DNA of 64,000 nt from Nitrospinota bacterium (GCA_029881335.1 JAOUMU010000001.1:35172-99171), one strand, 5' to 3'; positions 1 to 18,389 are shown, counted from the first letter of the stretch. Made by a program: numbers and translations. The notes: generated by a model from the sequence alone, not told the origin.

Positions 1-1441
1 CATCATTTTCCATTTCGTCATTACCATCCATGCCGCCACCTCCGGCGCCCTTGGCCTTTTCAGCCTCGCGCTCATGGGACACCATGCCAGCCAGGTTGTT
101 TCTTTTTATCATTCTATACAGCGACATGCGGGCGATTCCCGCATTCTCGGAAGCCTGGGTTATGTTCCCCTTGCAAGTGTAGAGCAGGTTCTCCAGAAAA
201 TCCTTCTCAAACTCGCCCAGGCACGATTCTCTGGCCTTTTTATAGGTCATGCCCCGCATGGCTCCCTGACGGCGAATGTTATCCGGCAGGTCCGCCGAGG
301 TCAACTCGTTTGTGTTTGCTCCCGCCACCGCGGTCTCCAGCGCTCCCATCAGCTCCCGCACATTGCCTGGCCAGTGATACTCCGCCAAAATCCGCATAAA
401 GTCATTCCCCACGGTTGTCGGCTCGGCGCCATCCCGCTTGGCCATGGCCGCCAGAAAGCTCTCGGTAAGCGCCGGTATATCCTCCGTCCGCTCCCGCAAG
501 GGTGGTATATGGATATTCACCACGTTTAGCAGAAAGTAGAGATCCTGGCGGAATTTCCCCTCGTTCACCATCCCCTTCAGATCGGCGTCGGTGGAACAGA
601 TCACCCGAGCGTTCAGCGGAGCCGATTCCCTCCTGCCCGGCAAGTCTGCCCCCTTGTTTTGCAGAATCCTGGCCAGTTGCGCCTGGGCATGAGGAGCCAG
701 CCGATCCACTCCGTCCATGTATAAGGTTCCCCCCTCCGCAGCCAGGAAAAAGTACTCAGGGCCTGCCTTTTCTCCAGCGATTGTGGCCGCTGGCGGCTGG
801 GCCAATAGCCGCTCCTTGGTCAGCTCGGCGCAATCCACCACCACAAAAGGCGCGCCGTCCCGGCCACCGTGGACATGGATGGCCATGGCCGCCGTCCGTT
901 TGCCGGTTCCCGTCTCCCCCTGGATCATGACACAAGTCCTGGAGGACGCCACCTTGGTTATTATCTGGGTTATCTGGGCCATGGCCCGGCTCCGCCCCAC
1001 GAAATTGTTACGCAAAAAGTCTTCGCGCACCTTTTGGCGCAGCATGTCGTTTTCGTTCACCAGCCTGCTTTTTTCCAGGGCGCGCCGAACGGTGATCACG
1101 AACTGGTCTGGCGAGAATGGCTTTGTGACGTAATCGAAAGCGCCGCTTTTCACAGCTTCCACCACCCCCTCTATAGTGGCATAGGCGGATATCATGATGA
1201 CAGGCATTTCGGGAAACTCCCCCTTTATCGCCGCCAACAGCTCCACACCGTTCATCCCTGGCATCTTGAAGTCGGTCACCACCGCCTCCGGCCGCAAGGC
1301 GCGGATCATCCGCAGGGCCTCGAAAGGGTCCGTGGAGCCTATGCAGGATATCTCTTCATCCTCCAGGATCCTCACGCACGACTCCAGGAGATCCGGCTCG
1401 TCGTCCACCAGCACCACACGCGCGCTTTCCTGTTCATGCAT
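1..1441 (-). CDS. sigma54-dependent response regulator (NtrC/Fis family), partial; the C-terminus runs off the window
   Basis: The reverse complement from 1441 translates MHEQESARVVLVDDEPDLLE (REC), then a VMIQGETGTGKR Walker A typical of sigma54 AAA+ activators, then a C-terminal Fis-type HTH (GNITQASENAGIARMSLYRMI) near coordinate 100. No stop occurs before position 1. The ATG overlaps the stop codon of the upstream kinase (ATGCATGA). Confidence 0.85.
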   Translation of the reverse strand, partial: MHEQESARVVLVDDEPDLLESCVRILEDEEISCIGSTDPFEALRMIRALRPEAVVTDFKMPGMNGVELLAAIKGEFPEMPVIMISAYATIEGVVEAVKSGAFDYVTKPFSPDQFVITVRRALEKSRLVNENDMLRQKVREDFLRNNFVGRSRAMAQITQIITKVASSRTCVMIQGETGTGKRTAAMAIHVHGGRDGAPFVVVDCAELTKERLLAQPPAATIAGEKAGPEYFFLAAEGGTLYMDGVDRLAPHAQAQLARILQNKGADLPGRRESAPLNARVICSTDADLKGMVNEGKFRQDLYFLLNVVNIHIPPLRERTEDIPALTESFLAAMAKRDGAEPTTVGNDFMRILAEYHWPGNVRELMGALETAVAGANTNELTSADLPDNIRRQGAMRGMTYKKARESCLGEFEKDFLENLLYTCKGNITQASENAGIARMSLYRMIKRNNLAGMVSHEREAEKAKGAGGGGMDGNDEMEND

Positions 1442-3404
1442 CGGCGATCACCCCCCTGGCTGGCTTTTTCATGGCCTCAAAGGCCGAGCGCAGGCTAACG
1501 GTGAACGAGGCGCCGGCGCCTGACCGGCTCTCCACGCTGATTGTTCCGCCGAAGTCTTTCACCAGGCCATAGCTGATGGAGAGGCCCAGTCCGCTTCCCT
1601 GCCCCACCTCTTTGGTTGTGAAAAATGGTTCGAACAGATGGGCCATCACCTCCTCGGTCATTCCTGGACCGGTATCCGATATCCGCAAATCCACCATCTC
1701 CGTCCCCTTACGGGCGGTCGCCACGGTGATCACCGCTCCTTTTTCAGAAGCCTGGAATGCGTTGAATACAATATTGTAGATTACCTGTTCCATCCCGGCG
1801 GCGTCGGCCCACACGAAGGGGATATCCTTATCAAGCTCAAGTTTTAGGACTATCCCCTTTTTCCTGACCGGGTAGTCGATAAGATCCAGCACCCGGCGGG
1901 TTATCTCGTTCAAGTCTACGGAAGACAGATCCCCTGGCTTGGAGCGGGAAAAAGTGAGCAGGTTGCCGGCGATTCTGCCGATACGCAGAGCATGGTGGGT
2001 CACCACCTCCAGGTCTTTCCTGGCTTTTTCAATCTCCCCTCTATCCACGGCCCTGCGGATAAGCTCCAGACGGGTGACCACTACCGAGATAGGGTTGTTT
2101 ATCTCGTGGGCCACTCCAGCGCTCAAAAAGCCTATGGCCGCCATCTTCTCCGCCTCCATCAGTTTCCGCTCCACCTCCTTGATCTTTTGGGAACGATCCT
2201 CCACCTTCTTTTCCAGCGATATACCATACTCGGTCAGCGATTCTGCCATGGCGTTAAAGGCGTCGGCCAGCGCTTCTATCTCATCCCCGGAGCGGATGAC
2301 GATCTTCCCGGAGCCCTCGCGGGTATCGGCGAAGCGCTCCACTCCCATGCGCAGAGCCCTGATGTTCCGAGTAAGCGCCCGGGAGAGGGCTATGGCCACA
2401 AGAGTCGCCAGAGCCAGGGCTCCCACGGCGCCCAATGCGTATTTTCTATTGATCACTCCAGCTTCAGGTCGCATCAGCTCCCTTGGGTAGCGGTCATACA
2501 CCACGAAGAAACGAGACCTGTCATCCGGCTCCGGAAAGACTGCTGCATAGGCGAACAGGGCGTTTGGGTCGTCATAAATTATACCTGTCCGACCGGAAAG
2601 AATCTGGCGGGACACGTTGCGGGGGTAGGCGGCTTTAACGTTCTCCTTCTCCATGGCAAAGAGGGTGGACTGGGTGGTCTCTTTTTCCATAAAAGGGTTG
2701 AAAAGATACTTCCCCTCGTGGGTCACCAGGGCTGCGGCGCGCCGGTTCTCCAGTGACATTCGGGAAAGCCCCTCCATCACCTCCGAGCCGTTCAGGTCCA
2801 GGTATATGATCCCCGTGGCGATCCCCTTTTCATCGAACACCTTTGTGGCGTATCTGGTGAGGGTGACGGAGCTTAGTTTCACGTCCTGGGGCACGATAGC
2901 CTGCATGGTTATGGCCGCCACCCCGAGGCCTTTCTGTTTGGCCGCCTCTACAAAATGAGGGGAGGTGACGTGGTTTCTTTTACTGAAATTATCCAGCGCC
3001 GCGACCCTGTTTCCAGACCGATACACGGTCACCACCTCGTCGCCGTATTCATCCAGCAGCCCGGCGGCAGAGTATCCTCCTTTGTTGGTCATAAACCTTA
3101 TAAACTCCCTTTCCACCAGTTCCGTCCAGAACACCATATCCTCTGGTCGATCCCTGGCGGCCACCATCAGGGAGGTGACGGCGTATCCGTGGCGAAGGTT
3201 TTTAATATCGACCTGGGCATTGATGAATGCGCGTTCGATCTCCTTGCTTCGGATCATGGAGTTCAGGAAAATAAGGCGCACCGCTTCCTCCGCCAGAGAA
3301 CCCTGGGCCATTCGCAAATCCTGCAGGCCGAAGTACGCCATGGGTGCAAACGCCACTAGCAGCAGGGCCACCATGAACCTTTTCCAGAGTTTGTTGAACA
3401 CCAT
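1434..3404 (-). CDS. sensor histidine kinase: N-terminal TM, about 300-aa periplasmic sensor, second TM/HAMP, HisKA, HATPase
   Basis: 656-aa ORF with an H-box (AHEINNPIS) and G-boxes (DTGPGM, GSGLGLSI). Two hydrophobic segments flank a long extracytoplasmic domain. It is translationally coupled to the downstream response regulator. Confidence 0.85.
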   Translation of the reverse strand: MVFNKLWKRFMVALLLVAFAPMAYFGLQDLRMAQGSLAEEAVRLIFLNSMIRSKEIERAFINAQVDIKNLRHGYAVTSLMVAARDRPEDMVFWTELVEREFIRFMTNKGGYSAAGLLDEYGDEVVTVYRSGNRVAALDNFSKRNHVTSPHFVEAAKQKGLGVAAITMQAIVPQDVKLSSVTLTRYATKVFDEKGIATGIIYLDLNGSEVMEGLSRMSLENRRAAALVTHEGKYLFNPFMEKETTQSTLFAMEKENVKAAYPRNVSRQILSGRTGIIYDDPNALFAYAAVFPEPDDRSRFFVVYDRYPRELMRPEAGVINRKYALGAVGALALATLVAIALSRALTRNIRALRMGVERFADTREGSGKIVIRSGDEIEALADAFNAMAESLTEYGISLEKKVEDRSQKIKEVERKLMEAEKMAAIGFLSAGVAHEINNPISVVVTRLELIRRAVDRGEIEKARKDLEVVTHHALRIGRIAGNLLTFSRSKPGDLSSVDLNEITRRVLDLIDYPVRKKGIVLKLELDKDIPFVWADAAGMEQVIYNIVFNAFQASEKGAVITVATARKGTEMVDLRISDTGPGMTEEVMAHLFEPFFTTKEVGQGSGLGLSISYGLVKDFGGTISVESRSGAGASFTVSLRSAFEAMKKPARGVIADA

Positions 3405-3432: not shown

Positions 3433-4233
3433 TCAGTTGATGTCCTTTACACAGCGAAAACCGATGACATGACTTTTGAAATGCTTGTTGACGAACTCGC
3501 GATGGGAGCCACGAGCCACCAGGTTCAAGTCCACCCAGGAGCCCCCCTTGACGACTTTCATTACAGGATGTTCCGGATCGGCGGAAGAAGTCCATTCCCG
3601 CACGTTGCCTGCCATGTCCATGGCGCCGTAGGGGCTCTTGTCCCCTGGGGCGTGACCGGTTTGGTTGGCGGAACTGGAGTTGCACAAGGCGTGGCCCATC
3701 AGGCGCATGTCGGAATCTGCCGTGGCCGCCTTCTCCACATCAAATTCGTTTCCCCACGGAAAGATCAATCCGTCCGGGCCCCTGGCGGCTTTTTCCCATT
3801 CCTCCTCGGTGGGGAGCCTTTTGCCCGCCCACTTGGCGTAAGCCTGGGCGTCTTCCCAGGTGACGTACAGGACGGGAAATTCATCCAGTCCTTTCATGTA
3901 GGTTCCGTTCTCCCAGTGCATCGGGGGCTTGGCGCCAGTGGTTTTGACGTATCTGGCGTATTGACGGTTGGTAACCTCGGTCTTGTCGATATAAAAGCTT
4001 TTCAGGCGTACTTTCCTTTTGGGAGTTTCCCAATCGAACCGGTACGTTCCATACATTCGGTGGCCTGCGTATTGCTCCGCCATCTTTTTGGCTTCTTCCC
4101 GAGAGGCGCCCATCCAGAATTCACCCTCCGGCGCCAGGACCATCATTGGTGGGGCTTCCTGGGCGTGAGAGGCTCTGGCCAGAGCGCAGAAGGCCGCAAT
4201 GACCGACACCAGAACCAGGCTCGCGTTTCTCAT
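3433..4233 (-). CDS. secreted FGE-sulfatase (SUMF1/NirV/EgtB-like) domain protein
   Basis: Motifs VTNRQYARYV, RLPTEEEWEKAARG, FPWGNEF, GGSWVD and GFRCV. Signal peptide MRNASLVLVSVIAAFCALARASHA. The start is moved to M22 of the track ORF: this gives a GGAGAG RBS and avoids overlap with the upstream substrate-binding protein gene. Confidence 0.7.
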   Translation of the reverse strand: MRNASLVLVSVIAAFCALARASHAQEAPPMMVLAPEGEFWMGASREEAKKMAEQYAGHRMYGTYRFDWETPKRKVRLKSFYIDKTEVTNRQYARYVKTTGAKPPMHWENGTYMKGLDEFPVLYVTWEDAQAYAKWAGKRLPTEEEWEKAARGPDGLIFPWGNEFDVEKAATADSDMRLMGHALCNSSSANQTGHAPGDKSPYGAMDMAGNVREWTSSADPEHPVMKVVKGGSWVDLNLVARGSHREFVNKHFKSHVIGFRCVKDIN

Positions 4234-4270
4234 TCTCGCAGTCTCTCCTTTTTTCCTTTCCTGACAAAGG

Positions 4271-5536
4271 TTATTTTCCGCCGTGGATATATTCAAATCC
4301 GTATTCGTGCCCAGTTTTCCTCAATTCAAAAATAAAAGCGGTTTTGTCCGCCTCCCGGGTGGAGCCGATGCTGGTGATACCTGTCACGCCCTGATATTTA
4401 TCGATATTCATTAGCGCGGCCCGCACATGGCTGGGGCGCAATGACTCTGCCTTTTCCAGGGCAATGGCCAGGATATGCAGGCTGTCGTATGCCAGAGCGG
4501 CCATTATGGTGGGTGTCTGGCCGAAACGCTCGGTGTAGTTCTTTACAAAAGCCTCCGTCCTGGGTAGTTTCGAGTTTACATCGAATCCGCTGAAGACTAA
4601 AGTCCCCTCTGCGTCTTTTCCCAATTCAGTGAAGGCCTCGGTCATCAGGTCCTCGCATCCTATCACGGGGATTTTGAGCCCCAACTTTTTCATCTCCGTC
4701 ACCAGCTTGACCCCTTCCTCGTCGCCGCCGGTATACACAATCGCGTCGGGAGGGTTTTTTATCATCTTTTTGATCTGGGCCTCAACGCCTCTCTCACCAG
4801 GTATGACGCTATCCATGCCGTGGGACCAGATGTAATACTCATCAATGATTTGAAGATTTCGCTTTATAAGCTCCATCTTGAATACGGCGTTTAGCTGGAT
4901 AGAATAGTCATTGACCACGGAGGAGAAGAGCGCGAATTTTTTCCATGGTCTCTTCTGTTGTATGAAGTCGACCATGGATGATACGCCGTTGGAATCCGTG
5001 AGCGAGTTGCGATAGTTATAGGGCCCCGTGTCCCCCAGCCTTCTTCTTGACCCGGAGGAGATCAGGGGCAACTGGTTGTCGTTTATCATTTTGTTGGCCG
5101 CGAAGCTGACCTCGCTGGTGGCGGCGCCCACCACGGCCACGGCCCTGTGCTTCAGGAAGGTCTCCACTCCGACCCTTGCTCCAGCCACAGATCCGGCGGT
5201 GTCGAAGATAAGCAGGTCAAATTCCTTTCCTCTTATCCCGCCCTTGCCGTTCACTTCATCGGCGGCCAGCTCCGCGCCGTTGGCCGCTTCCTTGCCGAAC
5301 CGGGAAAGTTCGCCACTCATGTCGCCCAGAACGCCGATTTTGGCTTCCCTGGGCTTCTCTTTCATTATTTCTACCTCAGTTTTCTCGCCGAATCCGTATT
5401 CGGGCGAGGCTGCGTCGTTGGTTCCAGCATAGGCGCCGGGACCGGAACCCGCAGCCAGAAAGAAAAACAGGGAATATATTGCCGCATTTATGATAAAGTA
5501 TGGCGTCATCTTGGATTCTTTTTTTTCAGTCATCAT
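4271..5536 (-). CDS. periplasmic ABC-transporter substrate-binding protein (LivK/Peripla_BP_6-like)
   Basis: 421 aa with an N-terminal hydrophobic signal/anchor. It has a type-I periplasmic binding fold signature (IGVLGDMSGELSRFG...AVVGAATSEV...). No permease or ATPase gene is adjacent. Confidence 0.65.
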   Translation of the reverse strand: MMTEKKESKMTPYFIINAAIYSLFFFLAAGSGPGAYAGTNDAASPEYGFGEKTEVEIMKEKPREAKIGVLGDMSGELSRFGKEAANGAELAADEVNGKGGIRGKEFDLLIFDTAGSVAGARVGVETFLKHRAVAVVGAATSEVSFAANKMINDNQLPLISSGSRRRLGDTGPYNYRNSLTDSNGVSSMVDFIQQKRPWKKFALFSSVVNDYSIQLNAVFKMELIKRNLQIIDEYYIWSHGMDSVIPGERGVEAQIKKMIKNPPDAIVYTGGDEEGVKLVTEMKKLGLKIPVIGCEDLMTEAFTELGKDAEGTLVFSGFDVNSKLPRTEAFVKNYTERFGQTPTIMAALAYDSLHILAIALEKAESLRPSHVRAALMNIDKYQGVTGITSIGSTREADKTAFIFELRKTGHEYGFEYIHGGK

Positions 5537-5605
5537 TCCATGGCCTTGTTGTTGCTGTGTTTTATTATGACTTTATAGTAAACAGTCATTTGAGGGGGAT
5601 ATATT

Positions 5606-6256
5606 TTGAAAATAGGGCATCTTAAATCAAGCACTGTGTTATTTGCTTTTTGCTTCATGGCATTTTGCATTTCAAAGGCAGGCGCCGCCGAATCCGACAT
5701 GGTGAAAGTTGCTGCGGGGGAGATTAAGCAGGACCAGAACGGCAAGGCCGTGAAAGTGGGCGCTTTCAAGATCGATAAGCACGAGGTCACCTTCGCGCAA
5801 TTCAACAGCTTTAACAAGGAATTCGAAATCCCCGAGGGGAAAGAGGACCATCCCATAACTGAAGTTACTTTTTTTGACGCCGAGGAGTATTGCAAGCATG
5901 TAGGCAAGAGGTTGCCCACCGGCGCTGAATGGGAACTGGCCGCCAGTGGGACAGATGGAAGGCTGTATCCCTGGGGAAACGAATTCGACTCCACCAAAGC
6001 CAACACTCTCGAGTCCGGGCGTAACGGCACCTCTCCGGTGGGCGCATACCCTGACGGCGCCAGCCCCTCCGGCGCGCTGGACATGAGCGGCAACGTGTGG
6101 GAGTGGGTGGACCAGTACGAGTCCTCCGAGAAGCGTTATCGCCTGGTGTTGGGAGGATCTTTCTTTGATAAAAAGGAGAATTGCACGAACAAGTCCTCTC
6201 TTAAAAGCATTCCCGACGATTCCCACACCTACATCGGCTTTCGATGCGCCAAATAG
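5606..6256 (+). CDS. secreted FGE-sulfatase (SUMF1-like) domain protein, paralogue 2
   Basis: Signal peptide, then RLPTGAEWELAASG, YPWGNEFD, GGSFFD and GFRCAK. It is divergent from the substrate-binding protein gene. Confidence 0.7.
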   Translation: MKIGHLKSSTVLFAFCFMAFCISKAGAAESDMVKVAAGEIKQDQNGKAVKVGAFKIDKHEVTFAQFNSFNKEFEIPEGKEDHPITEVTFFDAEEYCKHVGKRLPTGAEWELAASGTDGRLYPWGNEFDSTKANTLESGRNGTSPVGAYPDGASPSGALDMSGNVWEWVDQYESSEKRYRLVLGGSFFDKKENCTNKSSLKSIPDDSHTYIGFRCAK

Positions 6257-6272: not shown

Positions 6273-6746
6273 GTGATGAACAAAACGATATCGGAGAGTA
6301 AATCGATGAAGGCCGTTCGTACCACGTTTTCGGTGGTGGTGCGGGCGGTTGCCCTGGTTTTCATGTTGTTCCTGGTCGTCGGCTGCGAGCAGAGCGGCCC
6401 CACCAGCTTCATACAGTCTTCCGCGGAAGGAGGAGGAAGTAGTTTTTTCGTTCCCAAACCGGAAGACCTGGTGGAGGACCCTGAAACGGGGCTTATGATT
6501 ATCCGCGGCGCCCTAAACATTCACTTTTCCCCTAAGCTTGCCAGGGAGGAGGCGGAAAAAGTCATCGCCGCCTCCGGAGGAGAAATAATCGGCTATGACT
6601 ATTCCGTCAATTTCTTTCAGGCCCGGTTCAAACTGGACGGAGCCGAACTGGAGAAAAAGCGCATCGAGCTTTTGTCCCGCAAGCATGTGGAAACAGTGTC
6701 CCGCGCCAGCGTTTCCGTTCATATCGACCCCTATTACGTAAAATAG
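6273..6746 (+). CDS. hypothetical lipoprotein
   Basis: Signal peptide with a lipobox-like LVVGCEQ. No recognisable domain. Confidence 0.4.
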   Translation: MMNKTISESKSMKAVRTTFSVVVRAVALVFMLFLVVGCEQSGPTSFIQSSAEGGGSSFFVPKPEDLVEDPETGLMIIRGALNIHFSPKLAREEAEKVIAASGGEIIGYDYSVNFFQARFKLDGAELEKKRIELLSRKHVETVSRASVSVHIDPYYVK

Positions 6747-7524: not shown

Positions 7525-8184
7525 TTACTCCAGAAACAACGTTCTGAGGCCCACCCCCATGCTGCTCCAGGATATTTTTCCTTTTTTCACATCCGGAAAT
7601 TTGGCCTTGACCAGTTCCACTGTCTGCTTGCTCTTCTTGAAATCAATTCTTGGTGTCAACTCGGAGTTGTTCGATTCCCTGACATCAATCTCCACCACCA
7701 GCGCGCCATCCTCACCAAGTTCAAAGGTGTTCACCCGCCACTGGTTATCCCCCATGGCGGAGATCTCCTTCTTGACCTTCTCCACCGCCTCCGGGTCCAG
7801 CGATGGCCCCTGCTGCGCTTTCATGACGTTCATATATGTGGCTCTCACGGCGTTTAGAAGCCGATCATCCCCCGTCTGCTCCGCATAATACTTGGACATC
7901 GTCCCGGCGATATTGAAAATGAAGTCCCTTGCATCCGGTGGGGCTTCCGGGCTGGCGGCGTATTCCACCATCTCTTTCACTTCCCCAGGCACTTGGTCGG
8001 CGTGGGTTTTTATCAATTCCTTCATCTGCTTCTCATCCTTCTGGTCGTAAGCCTTGATGAAAAGCTGGCCCACGGAGGGCCCATCCTGCGCCATGGCAGG
8101 AGCTATTGTAACCAGAGCGGCCAGAAGAGTAAACACCGCCCATGCGGACGGCTTGATATGCGTAAGCATTTTGTTCTCCATCAC
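7525..8184 (-). CDS. hypothetical periplasmic protein
   Basis: Signal peptide. No recognisable motif. It overlaps the DUF4340 gene by 4 nt, so it is probably co-transcribed. Confidence 0.4.
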   Translation of the reverse strand: MMENKMLTHIKPSAWAVFTLLAALVTIAPAMAQDGPSVGQLFIKAYDQKDEKQMKELIKTHADQVPGEVKEMVEYAASPEAPPDARDFIFNIAGTMSKYYAEQTGDDRLLNAVRATYMNVMKAQQGPSLDPEAVEKVKKEISAMGDNQWRVNTFELGEDGALVVEIDVRESNNSELTPRIDFKKSKQTVELVKAKFPDVKKGKISWSSMGVGLRTLFLE

Positions 8185-9533
8185 ATAAAAATATTCAGTA
8201 TCCCCTTTACGCCTTCATCTACAGCTAGAATCGATTTTTCAGCTCCTGACTGCGCGTAAATATATCCCGCCGGTGTCCTGCCCCCCAGGCTCAGATACAT
8301 CGGCTCTATACTGGAGTCTTCAAATAGCAATATCTGTGCGAAAGGTGGATACAGCCCGTACTCCATCAAGTTCTTCGGATTGTCGGTGACGAAATCCCTC
8401 ACCCTGATGCTCGCCAATGCGTCGAAAAACTCCTTCACCTGGTTGTAATCGATCTTTTCCCCTTCCAGGCTGTCCATGTGCCATTCCTTTTCCTGATCCC
8501 GCACCAGCATCTGTTTCTTGCCGCGCTGGTGTATCTCTATTCTGGTCAAGCGCTCGGTTTCCATATAGAAAACGTTCCTGCTGCGAAGGTCGGCGGCATC
8601 CCTGGGAATTGCGTTTACAAGATCCTCCTCCACCAGGAAAACGTTCTCCCGGTCGGACATCGATACGTAATAGCCCCGCTTTTCCGGATTGCGGGCGCCG
8701 ATGGAGATGGATACGGTCTCCTCGGAATCTCCCGCCTGCCACAGCGATAGCTTGGCCGCAGGTTTGTCCAAACCGTATTTTGCAACATTAATCCTGGTTT
8801 CGTCAACGAACTCCTTGACTTCCGAATTAAAGAACATACCCATGAGTTCGAACACCCGGTTGTGATCCGCCCTGGCCTTTATCGGTTTTTCTATCGCCCA
8901 TCGCCCATCCCCGGGCAACTTCAGCCTGATATCCTTTCCATCCCGGCTCATGGCGAGCTGATCCACCATCACCGGATTAAACCGCAATATTCTCTTGTCC
9001 CTGAAGTAATATACATCCTTATCCGCCTCGCTACGGGCGTCGGCCAATACCCTATACACAGGCTCCTGCCCTTTGAGCCGGGCGAATGCGATGCCCATGG
9101 TGGGGCCTCTTTTACCGAAAAAGACCGTGTGGTGGGTCAGATCTTGCCCCACCTTCATGGTCAATGTCACAAGAGGATTGGCCAGCCCGAATTCGAGAAG
9201 CCGCTCCGCGCTCGGATTGGGGTCCATCACATACTCGGAATCGTTCTTTGAGGCGGTCACATTTCGCAAAAACTTCTCCACAGCCCCAGAGTCCGCCTTG
9301 GCGTTCAGGGGCTTTGTGATCCTCCAGCCATCCTCCCACCGCTCAATCTCTATGAGGCTCCCCTCCTTTTCCAGCACGATGGCGGCCACCTGCGTAGATT
9401 CAAATTTGAAAAGGCGGCTCTCCTCTTCTTTTCGCTGCTTCTCGGCTATGGTCCTCTCCCAGTCGATATAGCTATATCCGGCCACAGCGGTCAGGATCAT
9501 CACCCAAATGAATGTGGTCTTGTAATATCTCAT
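8181..9533 (-). CDS. DUF4340-like protein, the usual partner of GldG-type ABC auxiliary proteins
   Basis: 450 aa with an N-terminal TM. It sits immediately downstream of the GldG-like gene, which is the arrangement known for this family. No catalytic motifs. Confidence 0.5.
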   Translation of the reverse strand: MRYYKTTFIWVMILTAVAGYSYIDWERTIAEKQRKEEESRLFKFESTQVAAIVLEKEGSLIEIERWEDGWRITKPLNAKADSGAVEKFLRNVTASKNDSEYVMDPNPSAERLLEFGLANPLVTLTMKVGQDLTHHTVFFGKRGPTMGIAFARLKGQEPVYRVLADARSEADKDVYYFRDKRILRFNPVMVDQLAMSRDGKDIRLKLPGDGRWAIEKPIKARADHNRVFELMGMFFNSEVKEFVDETRINVAKYGLDKPAAKLSLWQAGDSEETVSISIGARNPEKRGYYVSMSDRENVFLVEEDLVNAIPRDAADLRSRNVFYMETERLTRIEIHQRGKKQMLVRDQEKEWHMDSLEGEKIDYNQVKEFFDALASIRVRDFVTDNPKNLMEYGLYPPFAQILLFEDSSIEPMYLSLGGRTPAGYIYAQSGAEKSILAVDEGVKGILNIFM

Positions 9534-9564
9534 CTTTCAGATTACTCCGCCCCAGGCCCCGGGC

Positions 9565-11160
9565 CTATGACTGTCCCTCCTGCCGGAACCAGCGCCGTCG
9601 GCTGTATATTCCCACTCCGGTCATCAGCACCATGGCTGGGACCATTACCACCGGCACCCAAAACACGGCTCTGGCCTGGGACGCGTCGAGCGTAACCGGG
9701 CTGATGTTCTTCTGCTTTGCCCGCACTCCCACGAAATCCGCCTTCTCCGACAGCCAGTGCACCGTGTTCATGAACAGATCGCGGTTGCCCACCAGGTTGA
9801 AGTTTGTGTTGCTCGCAAAATCGGAGTCGCCGATCAGAATGATTTTCCCGTATCGGTCCTTCACGGACCCGGTTTCGTCCTTTGCCCCCTTGGCGGCGTG
9901 GGTGGAAACCGCCATGACGGGAACAGGGCCGCGCTTCTCGTAGCCTTCGTTGTACTCGACGTTTCCATTCTCCAGCTGATCCTTGTCGGTCTCCGTCCAG
10001 CTGCTCGGGCCGGTCATCGCCAGCTGGTAGCGGCCCAATTTAGGATCCTCGTCTATATACACGGAATTGACTATGGGAAAGTAGGACGCCAGGGTGAAAT
10101 CCTGGGTCAACGGGTGCTTCTTGTTGTATGCGTAGACCGCCGGGGTCATGGCGTTTCCCCCATAAATCTGGGTCTGCCGGTCGATTATCACATCGCTTTG
10201 CAGTTTGAAGCCATAGCTCTCCAGCCAAGTCCGCAACGTCGGCGGATGGCCGGGGTCCAATTGAACGAAGAGAGCCCCGCCTTTTTTGTAATATTCGTCC
10301 AGCCGAATATATTCCTCCGCAGAGAGATCCTTCTGGGGGCTCGACAGAACCACCAGCGAGGCGTCCTCGGGCACCTCCTGCACCCGCATCAGGAATAGCT
10401 CCTTGATCTCATAGCTCTCCTGGAGCATGGCTTCGCGGGCGGCCGAATAGCCATCCTTGCCGGTGAAGCCCAGCTCCTTCTCCCCATGCCCTTTCACCCA
10501 GTAGATATAATTCTTTTCCTTGCTCACCAGGTTCAACAGGCCATTGGTAAGTTTCTCTTCGGTCTCCGTCCCCACCTTGAACTCCCGCCCCTGGCTCATC
10601 AACAGGATGAGCCGGAATTCCGATTGGCCATACTTTGAGGCCAGGCCGGGATTGCGCTCCGGATCTACGAAAGAGAAGGTGAATTTATCCGTCACACCGG
10701 CGTAGGACTCCAGAAGATCTCGGGCCATCTGCCTCTGCACGGCGTGCATGGTACCAGACTCGAAGCGGTAGAAAGCGACCGCTTTTACCGGGTGCTCCAG
10801 GTTCATCAATATGTTTTTAGTTTGGGTGGACAAGGAAAACCGCCCAGTCTTGGTCAGGTCGAACCTCTTGTTGTTGCCTGCGCCCCAGACAGCCACAGCC
10901 ACCATCACGCCGATGAAGATGATTATCATCACCACCATGTTCGCGCCGTACCTGGCGCTCTTGCCGCCGAGCAGCCTCTTGAACTCATTGAGGCGGATGT
11001 ATATCAGGAAAAGGGCAAGCATGGAGCCTACCCATATCAGGCCCGCCGCCGCCAGGCTCATTGTCCCGTCTATGGCGTAGAGGCTGAAGCCCCCCGCCAG
11101 CAGAATGCCCGCTATCAGCGTTATTATTATAATTGCCAGCATATTGTTTATCCCCTCCAT
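9565..11160 (-). CDS. GldG-like ABC-transporter auxiliary component (ABC_transp_aux family)
   Basis: 531 aa with N- and C-terminal TM helices flanking a large extracytoplasmic domain. It follows an ABC-2 permease, giving the canonical gldA/gldF/gldG-type order. Confidence 0.6.
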   Translation of the reverse strand: MEGINNMLAIIIITLIAGILLAGGFSLYAIDGTMSLAAAGLIWVGSMLALFLIYIRLNEFKRLLGGKSARYGANMVVMIIIFIGVMVAVAVWGAGNNKRFDLTKTGRFSLSTQTKNILMNLEHPVKAVAFYRFESGTMHAVQRQMARDLLESYAGVTDKFTFSFVDPERNPGLASKYGQSEFRLILLMSQGREFKVGTETEEKLTNGLLNLVSKEKNYIYWVKGHGEKELGFTGKDGYSAAREAMLQESYEIKELFLMRVQEVPEDASLVVLSSPQKDLSAEEYIRLDEYYKKGGALFVQLDPGHPPTLRTWLESYGFKLQSDVIIDRQTQIYGGNAMTPAVYAYNKKHPLTQDFTLASYFPIVNSVYIDEDPKLGRYQLAMTGPSSWTETDKDQLENGNVEYNEGYEKRGPVPVMAVSTHAAKGAKDETGSVKDRYGKIILIGDSDFASNTNFNLVGNRDLFMNTVHWLSEKADFVGVRAKQKNISPVTLDASQARAVFWVPVVMVPAMVLMTGVGIYSRRRWFRQEGQS

Positions 11161-11927
11161 CTTTTAGATTCCAGCGACCGCATGCTAAGGAATAAAAACA
11201 GCGCCATGAATATCAGGTAGTAGATTATATCGGAAGTGTCCAGGACGCCCTTTGCGAACTTTTCGAAATGAAACATTATCGACAGGTACTCCAGCACCTT
11301 GCCGGTGGTTTCACCCACCAGCCCTGCCGTATATCCCACCATGTACAAGAGCAGAAGCGCCGCGAAGCTGAGCGCCGCCGCGATCACCTGGTTCTCCGTG
11401 ATCGACGACATGAATATCCCCAACGACACAAAGGCGCCTCCCATCAGAAATAGCCCCATGTAGCCTGTCACCACCACTTCCCATTCCGGGTCCCCAAAAT
11501 AGCCCACCAGCGCCACCGATGGCAGGGATAACAGAAGCATCATAGTAAAGATGCCCATGCACCCGGCGAATTTTCCCATGATCGCCTCTTCGTCACGCAC
11601 GGGGAAGGTTAGCAAAAGCTCCATGGTGCCCGCCTTCCACTCCTCGGCGAAGGCCCTCATGGTCAGCATGGGAAGCATGATCAGCATCACCACAGCCACC
11701 ACGTTGAAAAACGGGCGTATCACCATTTCCGTCACGTTAAGCGCCCCAAACTGGCTGGCTATGGTGGGGTTTGTCTGCACCTCAAAGCTCAGCTGGCTGA
11801 ACTTGGCGAAGATCACGTAGAACTGGTATCCGGTGAGCACCGCGAATATGGTGGCCACCACGAAAGCTACCGGCGAGTTGAAGTATGATCTTATCTCCTT
11901 AACCAGGATAAATATGAAATTCTTCAT
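11148..11927 (-). CDS. ABC-2 type transporter permease (GldF-like)
   Basis: 259 aa with six predicted TM helices. It lies between the ATPase and the GldG-like gene, with overlapping or adjacent stops and starts. Confidence 0.65.
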   Translation of the reverse strand: MKNFIFILVKEIRSYFNSPVAFVVATIFAVLTGYQFYVIFAKFSQLSFEVQTNPTIASQFGALNVTEMVIRPFFNVVAVVMLIMLPMLTMRAFAEEWKAGTMELLLTFPVRDEEAIMGKFAGCMGIFTMMLLLSLPSVALVGYFGDPEWEVVVTGYMGLFLMGGAFVSLGIFMSSITENQVIAAALSFAALLLLYMVGYTAGLVGETTGKVLEYLSIMFHFEKFAKGVLDTSDIIYYLIFMALFLFLSMRSLESKRWRG

Positions 11928-11930
11928 CCC

Positions 11931-12872
11931 CTAATTCCCCTCCTCGGTGACGATCTTGATGAATATATCCTCCAGGCTCATTTTCACCGGCATCAGCTCG
12001 TACAGGTCCCATCTTTTCTCCACGATGGCCCGCGCCACCTGGCTGCTGCGGTCGATGGTCCCGTCAGAAAACTCCACAACGTACGGCAGGCTATCCTCCG
12101 CCCCGGCGCCCGTCTCCACGTTTTTAACTCCTTCCATAGCCCACAGGGCCTTCACCACATCCTCCTTCGGGCCGCCGATCCTGGCGCGCACCTTGTCGGA
12201 GACGCGCAACTGGGTGGTGAGGTTCTCTGGAGTGTCTATCGCCTTCACCCTGCCTTCGTCTATGATGATAATGCGCTTGCATATGGCGCTCACCTCCGGC
12301 AGGATGTGGCTACTCAGGATGATGGTGCGCTCCCCGGCCAGCCCCTTGATCAGAGATCTGATTTCTATTATCTGTTTCGGGTCCAGCCCGATTGTCGGCT
12401 CGTCGAGTACCAGCACTTCAGGATCATTGATCAGAGACTGGGCCAGGCCCACCCTCTGGCGGTACCCCTTGGAGAGCTCGCCGATGAACTTGTGAGCCAT
12501 GTGGGTCAAACCCACTCGCTCCATCAGTTCGCCCACGCGGCTGTTTATCTCCCTATAGGGCACATCCTTGAGTCCCGCCACGAACTTCAAGTAGGTCGGC
12601 ACCTGCATATCCGTGTAGAGCGGCACAGTCTCCGGCAGATAGCCTATTCTCCTGCGGACATTGAGCGAATCCTCGAACACATCGTATCCCGCCACTCGGG
12701 CCGTGCCACTGGTGGCAGGCATAAAGCAGGTGAGAATACGCATAGTGGTCGTCTTCCCGGCGCCGTTAGGCCCCAAAAAGCCCAAGATTTCCCCCTTTTC
12801 GACGCTGAATGTCACATCGTTGATGCCTCTTGCCTCGCCGTATTTCTTGGTAAGATGCTCCACTTCTATCAT
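11931..12872 (-). CDS. ABC transporter ATP-binding protein (GldA-like)
   Basis: Walker A GPNGAGKTT, signature LSKGYRQRVGLAQSL, Walker B LVLDEPT, and an H-loop. Confidence 0.85.
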   Translation of the reverse strand: MIEVEHLTKKYGEARGINDVTFSVEKGEILGFLGPNGAGKTTTMRILTCFMPATSGTARVAGYDVFEDSLNVRRRIGYLPETVPLYTDMQVPTYLKFVAGLKDVPYREINSRVGELMERVGLTHMAHKFIGELSKGYRQRVGLAQSLINDPEVLVLDEPTIGLDPKQIIEIRSLIKGLAGERTIILSSHILPEVSAICKRIIIIDEGRVKAIDTPENLTTQLRVSDKVRARIGGPKEDVVKALWAMEGVKNVETGAGAEDSLPYVVEFSDGTIDRSSQVARAIVEKRWDLYELMPVKMSLEDIFIKIVTEEGN

Positions 12873-13073: not shown

Positions 13074-14264
13074 TTACTTGTCGTATTCCATGCTTATCGC
13101 ATTGTCGCCCACCTTGGCGTCCGGGTTCGAATCGGAAGTGGTCTTCACGTCCACGCCGACCCTTTGGGAAGCCAGCCTGCCGCCGCCGATGGAGTTGTAG
13201 CCGCCTTCGTTGTGGCCACGGCCAGCCATCACGCCCGCAAGCTCCAGCTCCTCGTTCATATCCTGGAAGGCGGAGTTGCTGCGGGAAGAAGCAGCTGTCA
13301 CATCGTCCGGATCCATCTCGTAGGCCGGCTTGGCGGCCAATGTGCGGATAAAGGAGACAATGTTCCAAATGTCCTGATCCTGCAGGATGTTGCCCCAGGG
13401 AGGCATGGCCGCAGACATGTTACGAGCCTCGCCGCCGCCCTTGATCACCTTGAACATCTCCAGGTTGTCGATGTAGTTGGCGTACTTCCCGTTGGTCAGG
13501 TTACGCGGGCGAGGATCCAGCTCAGCGGCTGTGGGGCCGTCACCCTTGCCGCCCCAGCCGTGGCAGTGGACGCAATAAAAGGAGAAATAATGCGCGCCCT
13601 GATCAGGATCGGTCCCGGCGATCGGGGTCTTTCCGCCATGCCTCGGGCGAGTTATGTTGTTCCACTGGTTCACCCACTCGTTGTAGTCGCCGCCCAGCTT
13701 GGAGCCGGAATCATGCTTACGGAACCAAACCTCGGTCACGCCAGATTTTTCAGCCCAACCGGACTGGGTGTCGCCCAACTGGCCGGTCCACTTGTTTTTG
13801 AAGCGCTTCTCGATGGAGGACGCCAGCGGGCTTTTGTTCTGCGAGGTCAGCTTGCCGCCGCCGAGGGCCGCAGGCAGGTCCGCGCCTATTTTGCCAGGGC
13901 TGGAAGCAACCTTACCAACACCGGTCAGATAATCGAAGCCGGCCACGCCGTAGGTCGAGTGGCCCGAGCCCGTGCCCTTGGTCTTGGCGTCATCGCCCCA
14001 TCCGGCCACGTTGGCCGCTTCGGCCTCCCTCAAAAAAGCCTCCTGGGCTTTATCAGCGGCTTCCTGTGACAGGTCGCCCTCTTTTTTCGCCGCATCGAGC
14101 TCGGCTTTCGACTTGGTCCGCTTGGCCATCGCCTCGTTGGACGTCACCAGCGAGCCTGTGAAGGCAAACGCCAGGAACAACGCAAGAATAATCCTGAATT
14201 TCATAGATCCCCTCCAAATTAAAAATAAAGAGTTATTGAATATCACCCCTAAGGATTTACGCAA
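13074..14264 (-). CDS. periplasmic monohaem cytochrome c with a long N-terminal extension
   Basis: Signal peptide (an alternative start MKFRIILALFLAFAFTG is likely). About 230 residues of Lys/Glu/Gly-rich low-complexity sequence follow. Then a class I cytochrome c domain, YCVHCHGWGGKGDG...MPPWG. It is monocistronic, with promoter and terminator regions on both sides. Confidence 0.7.
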   Translation of the reverse strand: MRKSLGVIFNNSLFLIWRGSMKFRIILALFLAFAFTGSLVTSNEAMAKRTKSKAELDAAKKEGDLSQEAADKAQEAFLREAEAANVAGWGDDAKTKGTGSGHSTYGVAGFDYLTGVGKVASSPGKIGADLPAALGGGKLTSQNKSPLASSIEKRFKNKWTGQLGDTQSGWAEKSGVTEVWFRKHDSGSKLGGDYNEWVNQWNNITRPRHGGKTPIAGTDPDQGAHYFSFYCVHCHGWGGKGDGPTAAELDPRPRNLTNGKYANYIDNLEMFKVIKGGGEARNMSAAMPPWGNILQDQDIWNIVSFIRTLAAKPAYEMDPDDVTAASSRSNSAFQDMNEELELAGVMAGRGHNEGGYNSIGGGRLASQRVGVDVKTTSDSNPDAKVGDNAISMEYDK

Positions 14265-14564: not shown

Positions 14565-15188
14565 TCATTGATGGTAGGTGGTTTTCCCCATATTGACAAT
14601 GCAACCGCCGAAAAACCATTTGTCATCGTGGGAGTAGACTGTAACGTTTTGCCCCTCCCGGATCTTTTTCATGGAGCAGTCATAGCTCGCGCTCCTGACC
14701 TTTTTCCCATCATGCTCGGGGGCCGCGGTCTTATCTGGATACGACACATCCACTGGCACGTATACGTTGGTGGCCCTTTCGTATTCGGCGTTCACCGGGT
14801 CATCTTCCAGCGCGACCTGGTAGTATGGGTCCCCCACCTTTGTTTGGGCCCCGGGGGGGAAAAATCCTTTCTCGGCCCAGGTGATACCAATCTGGAAAGT
14901 GGGGGTCACATTCAGATATATCTCCTTGTACTGTTTATAGCTCCCCTCCAGGGACCTTTCCTTGTCCCCCTTGTTCATCTGGCGCATGAATTTCAGTTGC
15001 CTGGCTGTGACATGGTTAATGTCGAAAATGGTCTTGTAGTCGGACTCCTGAACCGCCTTGATATACCTTTCCAGTTCCTTGTCAGGATCACCAGGGATTT
15101 TATCAACGCATCCGGCGGCCAAAACCAAAGCCAGCCCAGCTAGCATCAGCGAGCGGGCCATCGGCTTACCAAACAACTTGCGGTTCAT
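14565..15188 (-). CDS. hypothetical lipoprotein
   Basis: Signal peptide plus LAAGCVDK lipobox. It overlaps the cytochrome b gene by 23 nt. Confidence 0.4.
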   Translation of the reverse strand: MNRKLFGKPMARSLMLAGLALVLAAGCVDKIPGDPDKELERYIKAVQESDYKTIFDINHVTARQLKFMRQMNKGDKERSLEGSYKQYKEIYLNVTPTFQIGITWAEKGFFPPGAQTKVGDPYYQVALEDDPVNAEYERATNVYVPVDVSYPDKTAAPEHDGKKVRSASYDCSMKKIREGQNVTVYSHDDKWFFGGCIVNMGKTTYHQ

Positions 15189-16437
15189 ACCAATGCCTCA
15201 TCATCCAGCGGTTGTCCACCACCAGGGGGTTCCTTAGCGTATCCTTGTAAGTCACGGGGGGGATGCCCATCCTGTCCCCCATTGACGCGTTATGGCAACA
15301 ATTGCACCCCATCCAGGGTGATTTCACACTACCCAATGTGAATCCAAAGAGCAGCAATCCGCAAAGCGTGGCTCCGACTCCCGCATATGCCACCGCTTTG
15401 AGCTTTCGACGGCCAGCTGGAACCCTGGCCAGCTCCTCTTTGCGCTTCCGCTTGACAATGAAGGGGAGAGCCAGAGCCATGACCAGCATCACGAAGGGAA
15501 TCCAGAAAAGGTAGAAACCCCAGTCTCTGGGGGGATAGTACCAATATGGCATCAGGAAAGTGACAAAATACCACTCCGGCGCGGGGATGAATTGACCCTC
15601 CATCGGCAGAGGTATCTGCTGTGGATCCTGGCTGGGGATGGGGAACAGCACGCTGAGAGAGACCAGCGCCACCACAAAGGGGAGGAACGCCACAAGCTGG
15701 CGGGCCGCGTAATCCCAAAAACCCCGCTTTCGCAGACGGGTAAGGCAATGGATCTCCAGCAGGACGAACGCCGTTATTGGAAGAACAATGTCATGGATTA
15801 CAAAGTTTCTGGTGGGGGTGTAGCTTTCCATGAAGAATGAGTACATCCAATCCCCAAAAAGGGGAATGTTTTTCAGCCAGTTGTTGAACATCTCCATCAT
15901 CCAGTAGCCTTTCCACTCCCATGGCAGGATAGTGCCGCTGATCAGAAAGCCCATATAGACGATGGACATGGCCACTCCGGTGATCCAGTTGAGCTTCCGG
16001 CCTCCCTGGAAATCCTTACGGAAATATCCACGCCAGAGATGAACGAAGATGGCCACGCCCAGCAGAAACGCTCCGTATCGGTGGAGATTGCGGGTGAAGG
16101 CGCCCAGGTATGTTTCGTTGTTGAAATACTGGACTGTCTTGTATGTATCCCGCAGGCTTGGCTCGTAATAGAAGATCATGTATAGCCCGGAGAGAAGCTG
16201 CAGGATAATCAGAAGCAGGGCCGCGCCTCCGAAATAATGGCGCCAGTTGAGCCGACGGGGTTTTATCCAGCCCCAAAAACCTCTGTTTCTCTCGAAATCA
16301 TAGTGATGGGGTCGGCCTGGCTGGCTTGTTCTTTTTCCCCTGGCATAAAGATTACCAGGAGCATGACTTGTTTCTTCAATCACTGGGTCGGACATAGCTT
16401 TGTTTAACACCGAGATACTGCAATTAAACCGGCCCAC
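15166..16437 (-). CDS. fused cytochrome b6 / subunit-IV (cytochrome b of a bc or b6f-type complex) with a C-terminal CxxCH motif
   Basis: N-terminal half has cytochrome b helix A/B signatures (YFGGAALLLIILQLLSGLYMIFYY, FVHLWRGYF). C-terminal half is PetD/SUIV-like (PEWYFVTFLMPYWYYP). After the last TM comes a short tail containing GCNCCHN, which is a CxxCH motif. The start may lie 14 codons downstream (MSDPV...). Confidence 0.75.
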   Translation of the reverse strand: MGRFNCSISVLNKAMSDPVIEETSHAPGNLYARGKRTSQPGRPHHYDFERNRGFWGWIKPRRLNWRHYFGGAALLLIILQLLSGLYMIFYYEPSLRDTYKTVQYFNNETYLGAFTRNLHRYGAFLLGVAIFVHLWRGYFRKDFQGGRKLNWITGVAMSIVYMGFLISGTILPWEWKGYWMMEMFNNWLKNIPLFGDWMYSFFMESYTPTRNFVIHDIVLPITAFVLLEIHCLTRLRKRGFWDYAARQLVAFLPFVVALVSLSVLFPIPSQDPQQIPLPMEGQFIPAPEWYFVTFLMPYWYYPPRDWGFYLFWIPFVMLVMALALPFIVKRKRKEELARVPAGRRKLKAVAYAGVGATLCGLLLFGFTLGSVKSPWMGCNCCHNASMGDRMGIPPVTYKDTLRNPLVVDNRWMMRHWYEPQVVW

Positions 16438-17669: not shown

Positions 17670-18341
17670 TTAATCAGCCGTCATCAGAAAGTTAACCATC
17701 AGTTGCAAGGTGGCATCGTCAAAATCCCTCTTGGCCATCCAGACCTTCGGATCCCAATGCTTCGGATCCTGAATGAAGCTGTACATCCAGTCAGGATTCA
17801 GCCTCTCGCCGATCCCCTCGAATGTGGGGCAGGAAATGCCGCCGCCCTTACCCGGGAACACATGGCAGGCGTTGCACGCCTCATCCTTCATCATCACCAC
17901 GCGGGCCCTGGCTTTTTTGACCTTACCCGGTTTAAACACACCAGTCTTCATACTGGCGTCTTTTAAGGTCATCAGGTAATCCGCCACAGCGGCCGCGTCC
18001 CCCGCAGAGAGCTTAGACGCGCATTTCGGCGGATCCTTCACTACATCCGCCTCGCCGTTCAGAGAAATGCTGTTCAAATAAACCACTCCACCAGCCCTTA
18101 ATGTAGTCGGGCTCTGAATATACTTTACCAGCCAATCCTTGTTGAACTTGCTGCCAGCGTAAAACAGATCGGGCGCCTTGCGTTTCATAACTTCCGCGAT
18201 CGTCTGCGCCGACGGACCCACCATCTTGTGACAGGAACCGCACTTGTTGCTTTCCACCAGCGCCTTACCATCCGCGGCCATCGCCGACGGAGCTGCCACC
18301 GCCATCAACGCGGACACGGCTAAAGCCAAAATCCTTGTCAT
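17670..18341 (-). CDS. periplasmic dihaem cytochrome c
   Basis: Signal peptide. Two CxxCH motifs (CGSCHKM, CNACHVF). Confidence 0.7.
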   Translation of the reverse strand: MTRILALAVSALMAVAAPSAMAADGKALVESNKCGSCHKMVGPSAQTIAEVMKRKAPDLFYAGSKFNKDWLVKYIQSPTTLRAGGVVYLNSISLNGEADVVKDPPKCASKLSAGDAAAVADYLMTLKDASMKTGVFKPGKVKKARARVVMMKDEACNACHVFPGKGGGISCPTFEGIGERLNPDWMYSFIQDPKHWDPKVWMAKRDFDDATLQLMVNFLMTAD

Positions 18342-18389
18342 ACCGAAACCTCCTTTATCTAATTAATCGCAATTATGCGTGTTCGACAA

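Follow-up and report, generated by a model that had tools for sequence, protein, structure and literature searches.

Exported FGE-fold proteins without the catalytic cysteine pair in clade III nosZ modules of Nitrospinota

Results

A 64,000-nucleotide stretch of DNA from a bacterium of the Nitrospinota, an abundant marine nitrite-oxidising phylum (GCA_029881335.1, JAOUMU010000001.1:35172-99171; hereafter the window), encodes three paralogous exported proteins, here called FGE1, FGE2 and FGE3, that have the fold of formylglycine-generating enzyme (FGE) without its catalytic Cys pair. All three genes sit in modules of the neighbourhood of a clade III (lactonase-type) nitrous-oxide reductase gene (L-nosZ, encoding L-NosZ), and they are Nitrospinota-specific insertions into this L-nos supercluster. 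Because the catalytic residues are lost, because the FGE1 gene is tightly coupled to that of an orphan periplasmic substrate-binding protein (SBP), and because fusions between CcmH-like and FGE sequences exist, we favour the reading, held tentatively and with a little less than even confidence, that FGE1-3 are Sec-exported, non-catalytic FGE-fold (C-type-lectin-like) proteins with binding or adaptor roles in the sensory and thiol-redox L-nos modules of Nitrospinota. Coordinates are collected in Table 1.

The catalytic cysteine pair of FGE is missing from FGE1-3

A Pfam scan covering about 50 open reading frames (ORFs) of the window matched PF03781 over essentially the whole model in FGE1, FGE2 and FGE3, which are 35-41% identical in pairwise comparison; the three FGE-domain paralogues listed in a preliminary description of this DNA, made from the sequence alone, are thus real. 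The signal peptides reported there also held up. Read by eye, they are of the Sec type (FGE1, MRNASLVLVSVIAAFCALARASHA followed by QE; FGE2, MKIGHLKSSTVLFAFCFMAFCISKAGA followed by AE; FGE3, MRGAPALITITLAFAVIPHVWA followed by EE), each showing a basic n-region, then 12-16 residues of hydrophobic core and a small-x-small cleavage motif; the same inspection gave no canonical lipobox. The length range given there, 216-307 aa, is right at its lower end (FGE2); FGE1 has 266 residues, FGE3 probably has 259, a length backed by an identical database entry (P0121, 259 aa), and 307 corresponds to the maximal GTG ORF of FGE3.

The catalytic pair that we sought is that of human FGE, the Cu(I)-binding Cys336 and Cys341, spaced C-x4-C after the GGS motif. 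The core RLPT...GGS(W/F)...GFRC pointed out in the preliminary description is present, but the segment between GGS(W/F) and GFRC (FGE1, VDLNLVARGSHREF; FGE2, FDKKENCTNKSS; FGE3, LTPRTSLRAAARL) contains no catalytic Cys pair. In a profile of FGE1 and 23 homologues (alignment A1) the human catalytic segment kGGsymcHRSycYRYRC aligns to non-Cys or insert columns, and the pair is likewise missing from all aligned homologues (23 of FGE1, 7 orthologues of FGE2 and, in alignment A4, 17 of FGE3). The only cysteines kept in the seven FGE2 orthologues, those of ..YCK.. and GFRC, correspond to the FGE structural disulfide; the same two alone are kept in the 17 FGE3 homologues, and A1 has no invariant cysteine at all. 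A candidate FGE1 disulfide, Cys184-Cys261, was dropped since A1 shows no co-variation of the two residues. The alignments of FGE1, FGE2 and FGE3 reveal no conserved Cys/Met/His metal site, and the invariant columns of the FGE1 and FGE3 alignments are family-wide structural motifs. Since the catalytic pair is absent from FGE1-3 and their orthologues, the Cu(I)/Cys-oxidase chemistry considered in the preliminary description, which itself named a lack of the pair as evidence against its proposal, is effectively excluded for these proteins, and the annotation 'FGE' is wrong.

These data bear directly on whether FGE1-3 could be genuine formylglycine-generating enzymes for sulfatases encoded elsewhere in the genome, an explanation that we consider vanishingly improbable. 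The full-length PF03781 matches, the conservation of RLPTEEEWE, GNVWEW, GGSW and GFRC in the FGE1 alignment and the label 'formylglycine-generating enzyme' on database homologues are all consistent with it, whereas the Cys pair is absent throughout, CalU17 and SUMF2, an inactive paralogue, come out as the best relatives of solved structure, and the window holds no sulfatase gene, as had been stated before: no sulfatase domain was found among the ORFs scanned with Pfam, and a regular-expression search of all window ORFs of at least 150 aa returned no CxPxR sulfatase signature.

A structure model of FGE1 confirms the FGE fold. With an AF2 model of FGE1 (pLDDT 80.8, pTM 0.81), Foldseek returned CalU17 first (E 5.7e-21, 30% identity) and FGE structures at a TM of about 0.65; a single-sequence search (phmmer) gave CalU17 at E 8.8e-29 and SUMF2 (also called pFGE) at 6.3e-25, with true FGEs aligning over the N-terminal half only. 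CalU17 (PDB 6vqp, 7ml6), the closest solved relative by sequence and fold, shares a TA(D/E) loop after PWG and differs in being an actinomycete secondary-metabolite cluster protein (calicheamicin) from another genomic context. SUMF2, the inactive paralogue of human FGE (PDB 1y4j), resembles FGE1 in its stand-alone fold, its RLPTEEEWE, GNVWEW and GFRC motifs and its lack of the catalytic pair, and aligns with it end to end (profile E 1.5e-42); it differs in being a eukaryotic endoplasmic-reticulum protein that partners FGE and sulfatases, whereas FGE1-3 are periplasmic proteins of a bacterium for which neither an FGE nor a sulfatase partner is in sight. True Cu(I) FGEs (human SUMF1 and the enzymes of S. 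coelicolor and T. curvata) share the fold and structural motifs, including a structural disulfide whose equivalent (..YCK.. and GFRC) is retained in FGE2 and FGE3, and differ in possessing the two Cu-binding catalytic cysteines; no sulfatase substrate for such an enzyme lies in the window.

Several other families built on this fold (EgtB, OvsA, SenA, ToxD and PvdO) appear among the sequence or structure matches, and none of the NCBIfam equivalog cutoffs was reached: GldK, the top match of both FGE1 and FGE3, gave 99.3 bits (cutoff 350), SenA 95.2 (420), EgtB 89.6 (360), GldJ 47.7 (458) and PvdO (NF051459) 37.6 (500). GldJ, GldK and PorK, of Bacteroidota gliding and type IX secretion (T9SS), are non-catalytic FGE-fold envelope proteins, and GldA/F/G-like genes lie 2-6 kb from FGE2 here; the resemblance stops at scores far under cutoff, the lack of a lipobox in FGE1-3, the lack of T9SS genes and a different phylum. 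The amounts of GldJ and GldK depend on GldG, a component of the GldAFG transporter (PMC5682007), whereas the GldAFG-like set considered here is also present at L-nosZ loci without an FGE gene.

FGE1 and FGE2 belong to a conserved sensory unit

On the minus strand the order of transcription is SBP, FGE1, histidine kinase (HK) and response regulator (RR), with gaps of 37 nt between SBP and FGE1 and 28 nt between FGE1 and HK, and an overlap between HK and RR. The preliminary description had the first two paralogues arranged divergently around the SBP and lying downstream of the RR/HK pair. FGE2 is indeed divergent from the SBP gene, but FGE1 is co-directional with it and immediately downstream, and the SBP and FGE1 genes are transcriptionally upstream of HK and RR. 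Its description of a LivK-type SBP without a transporter was confirmed: the protein is a Peripla_BP_6 member whose PDB matches are branched-chain amino-acid binding proteins (best 4gnr, 1e-29), and the ORFs scanned include neither a LivH/M-type permease nor a LivG/F-type ATPase. The last few C-terminal residues of the RR lie outside the window's left edge; the full gene, of 489 aa, is at 12793-14262 of L001, a 99.5-kb ENA contig of a Nitrospinota metagenome-assembled genome (MAG) that encodes FGE1 verbatim.

Homologues of FGE1 at 50-88% identity carry almost exclusively Nitrospinota or Nitrospinae labels. FGE2 followed divergently by SBP-FGE1-HK-RR is the order kept in the Nitrospinota MAGs L003, L004, L083/84, L085/86, L087/88, L091, L165 and L167, whose FGE1 is only about 50-56% identical to that of the window. 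The SBP-(FGE1)-HK arrangement is conserved in nine Nitrospinota places, so that the search for a conserved SBP-HK neighbourhood proposed in the preliminary description had a positive outcome; HK adjoins FGE1 in every Nitrospinota locus examined, and the position of FGE2 is conserved in L003, L083, L085, L087, L091, L165, L167 and L168. Of four relatives with called genes, three (L083, L085, L087) have the SBP stop and the FGE1 start overlapping by 4 bp, and the two genes abut in L091, where the sigma54 regulator is displaced, yet FGE2, SBP, FGE1 and HK stay together. Outside Nitrospinota, 78 genome loci with FGE1 relatives (from Nitrospira, Poribacteria, Gallionellaceae, Chloroflexota and others) contained no SBP or HK partner, only tandem FGE copies or long fusion ORFs.

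Tight coupling of SBP and FGE1 would also fit a pair of enzyme and binding protein. FGE1-3 could be periplasmic enzymes that work without the Cys pair, as proposed for PvdO, ToxD and CalU17, and whose small-molecule product is bound by the SBP and sensed by the kinase or is needed for L-NosZ biogenesis. The variety of enzyme types on the FGE fold, five of which are named among the matches above, and the closeness of CalU17 speak for this; still, we judge it unlikely, for PF03781 is the only domain detected in these proteins of 216-266 aa, which have neither a DinB domain nor a His triad nor any other conserved set of candidate catalytic residues, the invariant columns correspond to structural motifs shared by the whole family, FGE1 has been lost from one otherwise intact locus (L168), and no biosynthetic genes accompany FGE1-3 (pvd genes, like nirK, are absent from the window).

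The modules lie in a clade III nosZ neighbourhood

In L001 the RR gene is followed by a fused gene resembling those of the major facilitator superfamily and spermidine synthase, and then by genes for P140, a 599-aa L-NosZ, the 134-aa protein P134 and a cytochrome b. P140 (140 aa) exceeds the NF052405 cutoff ('NOV5WD8W family nitrogen cycling protein'; 220 bits vs 170). The 599-aa protein (L001 17867-19666, about 3.6 kb left of window position 1) consists of a beta-propeller and a cupredoxin domain; its top NCBIfam match is NF052460, 'clade III lactonase-type nitrous-oxide reductase' (E 1.4e-183), at 610.8 bits, below the cutoff of 700, and it matches solved NosZ structures in the PDB at 4e-23. 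The CuA motif C..C..H..M and about ten histidines are invariant among 17 L-NosZ homologues (alignment A2). The P140 and L-nosZ genes together occupy L001 17344-19666, some 3.1-5.4 kb to the left of window position 1. The first description of lactonase-type (clade III) N2O reductases dates from 2025 (He et al., Nature 646:152, via PMC13477213); PMC13477213, citing He et al., Nature 2025, places clade III nosZ in Nitrospinota, reports its clusters without nosR/D/L and gives as its neighbours cytochromes and genes for transporters, among them a distant NosF/NosY-like pair.

We surveyed 80 metagenome loci around L-nosZ homologues by searching them with the window proteins. The cytochrome c of 13074-14264 recurs in 61 of them, a P134 homologue in 32, the cytochrome b of 15166-16437 in 28, and SCO1 in 9; the set of ATP-binding cassette (ABC) ATPase, ABC-2 permease, ABC_transp_aux and DUF4340 genes recurs in 10-16, its best NCBIfam matches being GldA, GldF and GldG and not NosF or NosY, all below cutoff. 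FGE-like ORFs were found only in the Nitrospinota-type loci L165, L167 and L168 and in L132 and L102. L132 is the same place as a locus described below (L089), and the FGE-like gene of L102 is 9 kb from L-nosZ. FGE genes are present in only 2 of about 70 non-Nitrospinota loci, and we rejected the idea that they are general L-nosZ neighbours. L089 (UOFX01000083.1, labelled as a gamma-proteobacterial vent contig) is the only locus without a Nitrospinota label in which an FGE1-like gene (44% identical) is embedded in an L-nos cluster. There it heads a cytochrome c-ABC operon beside SCO1/SenC, in the contiguous order L-NosZ-like, cytochrome b, SCO1/SenC, FGE1-like, cytochrome c, GldAFG-like ABC, DUF4340, SBP and cytochrome b; the cluster contains no kinase or regulator.

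This distribution also bears on whether FGE1-3 are assembly factors or chaperones for the copper centres of L-NosZ, analogous to NirV with NirK and filling in for the missing NosD/NosL/NosR, with no sensory part. Such a role is in keeping with the location of FGE1-3 in the L-nos supercluster, with the position of the L089 gene beside SCO1/SenC near L-nosZ, and with the lack of canonical accessory genes in clade III clusters (PMC13477213). NirV (encoded downstream of nirK; here S. meliloti pSymA, L176 17737-18651) itself has the FGE fold, no CxxxxC pair and a hydrophobic segment at its N terminus, and is co-encoded with a copper enzyme of denitrification. It is, however, only 28% identical to FGE1 (47.8 bits), lacks RLPTEEEWE, has NirK and not L-NosZ as its partner, and gave no phmmer match to FGE2 or FGE3 at 1e-5, so that the kinship with NirV raised in the preliminary description does not extend to orthology (an FGE-like gene beside sugar ABC genes on a Sinorhizobium plasmid, L175, is unrelated and not NirV). 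Disruption of nirV is reported to have no effect on nitrate reduction (PMC1262709). The absence of FGE genes from most L-nosZ loci, all but L089/L132 and the distant L102 of the roughly 70 outside Nitrospinota, means that FGE proteins cannot serve as general L-NosZ maturation factors, and no conserved metal site is visible in them; a copper-assembly role strikes us as rather unlikely.

A sigma54-type element, TGGTACATGGTTTGCA, of the form TGGTA(C/T)-N5-TTGCA (GG at -24, GC at -12) precedes the P140 start by about 80 nt. Seven of eight testable Nitrospinota loci have it (L001, L003, L083, L165, L168, L170 and L174, but not L167), and there it is the only conserved island of a spacer that has otherwise diverged. 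Among 48 non-Nitrospinota L-nosZ loci such a site occurs in 7, roughly the background (0.105 expected per 930 nt). As the promoter stands before P140-L-nosZ only where the adjacent sigma54 activator is present too, and both co-occur with the SBP, FGE and HK genes in one lineage, we infer from sequence that the SBP/HK/RR two-component system controls P140-L-nosZ. Within the window itself, sigma54-like sites are fewer than chance would give (21 found vs 32 expected). One at 5541-5556 (TGGCCTTGTTGTTGCT), in the 70-bp spacer between FGE2 and SBP, was rejected as promoter evidence because it is absent from five orthologous spacers, and one at 36337-36352 on the minus strand, upstream of the FGE3 operon, was set aside as having one mismatch and not being conserved in L092 or L093.

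FGE3 is inserted into a thiol-redox operon

The start of FGE3 overlaps the stop of a CcmH-like gene, in an operon whose order in Nitrospinota, TlpA-CcdA-U254-CcmH-like-FGE3-CxxCH-TlpA, is conserved in L092, L093 and L094. An FGE-less version, U254-CcmH-like-CxxCH-TlpA-TlpA-CcdA, lies directly upstream of L-nosZ in 11 of the 80 loci, all 11 of them non-Nitrospinota, and in most non-Nitrospinota versions the CcmH-like and CxxCH genes are directly adjacent. The slot taken by FGE3 between these two genes holds an AhpD/CMD-family CxxC protein in L161 (7388-7966, minus strand) and is a gap of similar size in L119. Two homologues, P0192 and P0197, are CcmH::FGE fusions.

In place of the usual CPxC of CcmH, the CcmH-like protein has a CPCEC...CHMSC motif, CPCECPMVLEDCHMSC, which both fusions retain. 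The CcdA/DsbD_TM-like protein ends in a His/Met-rich repeat (HGQMD three times). Conservation of CPCECPMVLEDCHMSC across phyla in L-nosZ-linked operons suggests that these operons may handle metal besides carrying out thiol redox.

On the plus strand beside this operon, a group of genes at 24502-30417 (a sigma54 RR, a B12-binding protein, a 913-aa URO-D/2Fe-2S/RACo-like fusion and a PAS histidine kinase) still adjoins it in L092 and L093; such a corrinoid methyltransferase/activase-like set is unexpected in these surroundings.

Other features of the window

The G+C content of the window is 56%. The putative lipoprotein gene after FGE2, apparently co-transcribed with it, has no match in Pfam or NCBIfam and has a homologue at the same position in eight fetched loci (seven distinct places). 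A run of c-type cytochrome genes occupies 17670-23536 on the minus strand; one of them (18390-19958) encodes a dihaem cytochrome c joined to an ethylbenzene-dehydrogenase-like (EB_dh) domain, and the run ends with a 647-aa homologue of cytochrome bd-like subunit I (21593-23536), a sigma54-like site lying at 23803-23818 on the same strand. A 618-aa protein at 36397-38253 (plus strand) has a TMEM43 domain, and a 598-aa ORF at 46687-48483 (minus strand) has no Pfam match.

Table 1 Window features considered here, with positions counted from the first nucleotide of the window
Feature	Position	Strand	Support
RR, NtrC-type: receiver (REC), sigma54-interaction AAA+, HTH_8	1-1441	-	Pfam Response_reg 8.6e-27, Sigma54_activat 3.4e-35, HTH_8 4.4e-05
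Sensor HK: transmembrane helix (TM) 1, periplasmic dCache-like domain, TM2, HAMP, HisKA, HATPase_c	1434-3404	-	Pfam
FGE1, exported FGE-fold protein, 266 aa	3433-4233	-	PF03781 E 8.5e-48
SBP, orphan, LivK-type, Peripla_BP_6; first gene of SBP-FGE1-HK-RR operon	4271-5536	-	Pfam E 3.7e-47
FGE2, exported FGE-fold protein, 216 aa, divergent from SBP	5606-6256	+	PF03781 E 4.4e-40
Putative lipoprotein, conserved	6273-6746	+	
GldA/GldF/GldG-like ABC-2 transporter genes and DUF4340	8181-12872	-	Pfam
DUF4340 (ABC set)	8181-9533	-	
ABC_transp_aux (ABC set)	9565-11160	-	
Permease (ABC set)	11148-11927	-	
ATPase (ABC set)	11931-12872	-	
Thiol-redox operon hosting FGE3	30756-36164	-	Pfam
TlpA-like redoxin (operon end)	30756-~31250	-	
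Membrane CxxCH protein	31262-32128	-	
FGE3, exported FGE-fold protein, 259 aa	32125-32904	-	PF03781 E 2.1e-41
CcmH-like protein	32901-33350	-	
U254, 254-aa protein	33347-34111	-	
CcdA/DsbD_TM-like protein	34113-34892	-	
TlpA-like redoxin (operon first part)	34913-35566	-	
215-aa ORF (operon first part)	35517-36164	-	

Discussion

Taken as non-catalytic binding or adaptor proteins, FGE1-3 could act at two points of the L-nos system. FGE1, probably with FGE2 and the orphan SBP, would serve as a periplasmic ligand- or protein-binding co-sensor that modulates the dCache HK, and the phosphorylated NtrC-type RR would then activate the sigma54 promoter of the P140-L-nosZ operon. In FGE3 the former peptide-binding groove of the FGE fold may have been re-used as an adaptor, presenting a Cys-containing client to the CcmH-like/TlpA/CcdA reducing pathway, and this pathway plausibly serves the cysteines of Cu sites; possible clients are the CuA domain of apo-L-NosZ and the neighbouring CxxCH protein. 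Of the earlier suggestion that the three paralogues are factors for respiratory proteins, a weaker form survives, in that all three genes are in clade III nosZ modules and FGE3 is embedded in, and in relatives fused to, a CcmH-like thiol-redox system, whereas Cu/Cys chemistry of the FGE type does not.

Several points weigh against a binding or adaptor role. We infer every functional link of FGE1-3 from gene context and synteny, and Cys-independent catalytic activity of the three proteins is possible. The loss of FGE1 from L168, an otherwise intact Nitrospinota locus that retains FGE2, and the second tandem copy of FGE1 in marine loci indicate that FGE1 is not essential to the module; L085 keeps the module without an adjacent L-nosZ; and conservation is lacking for both sigma54-like sites, the one upstream of FGE2 and the one upstream of the FGE3 operon. 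The earlier proposal that the SBP is a sensor partner of the kinase is plausible given the conserved SBP-FGE1-HK operon and the lack of an importer, but in two non-Nitrospinota loci (L089 and L148) the SBP homologue directly follows a GldAFG-like ABC operon and is not beside a kinase, which leaves room for a transporter-linked role. Finally, Nitrospira, Poribacteria and many other phyla have large numbers of FGE-like genes, often in tandem, without this context, so some of the adjacency could be incidental. Carried to its limit, this argument, together with L085, would make FGE1-3 generic periplasmic FGE-like proteins in incidental positions, with no tie to the SBP and two-component system, the thiol-redox operon or L-NosZ. 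We regard that as quite improbable in view of the conservation of their positions across Nitrospinota at about 50% protein identity, the overlapping stop and start codons and the two independent CcmH::FGE fusions.

The FGE fold, a relative of the C-type lectins, serves widely as a binding or sensor module without catalysis. Sensor kinases assisted by an SBP are likewise familiar, as in LuxP-LuxQ, TorT-TorS and ChvE-VirA, which the Nitrospinota unit resembles in that a sensor kinase is encoded together with an orphan periplasmic binding protein and without a cognate importer; it differs in having an FGE-fold protein translationally coupled to the SBP and a second one encoded divergently. Among FGE-like proteins, the type VI secretion (T6SS) immunity protein Tsi3, which also lacks the catalytic Cys, acts by protein-protein binding to its effector (10.1101/2021.05.21.445229), although no T6SS, vgrG or effector genes are near FGE1-3; lectin-like 'FGS' sensor domains occur in conflict systems (PMC8195603), and there are Ser/Thr kinases with C-terminal FGE-like (NirV/DUF323) domains (PMC1262709). 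Non-catalytic FGE-fold proteins and SBP-assisted two-component sensors are thus of kinds already known, and what the context adds is the recruitment of FGE-fold paralogues, in Nitrospinota only, around clade III nosZ.

A bolder reading, which we hold to be distinctly unlikely, would make FGE1-3 the missing accessory factors, specific to the lineage, of clade III N2O reductase in Nitrospinota. FGE3 would read the CuA/CuZ Cys segments of apo-L-NosZ for reduction and metallation, a Cys-oxidising fold thus being re-used as a cysteine-peptide reader, and FGE1, FGE2 and SBP would form a new three-part kinase input that switches on sigma54-dependent L-nosZ.

Clade III clusters are reported without NosR/D/L (PMC13477213). 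For the maturation and regulation of clade III NosZ in Nitrospinota our analysis supplies concrete candidates: a sigma54 promoter before P140-L-nosZ, an adjacent sensory operon of SBP, FGE-like protein, dCache kinase and NtrC-type regulator, and a thiol-redox operon that gained an FGE-fold partner, occasionally by fusion. The proteins may add another case to the growing list of FGE folds that serve as binding modules without catalysis, and they counsel caution where genes of this sort are annotated automatically as 'formylglycine-generating enzyme' or 'nonheme iron enzyme'. The three Cys-less FGE-fold paralogues are testable candidates for the regulation and maturation of clade III N2O reductase in Nitrospinota.

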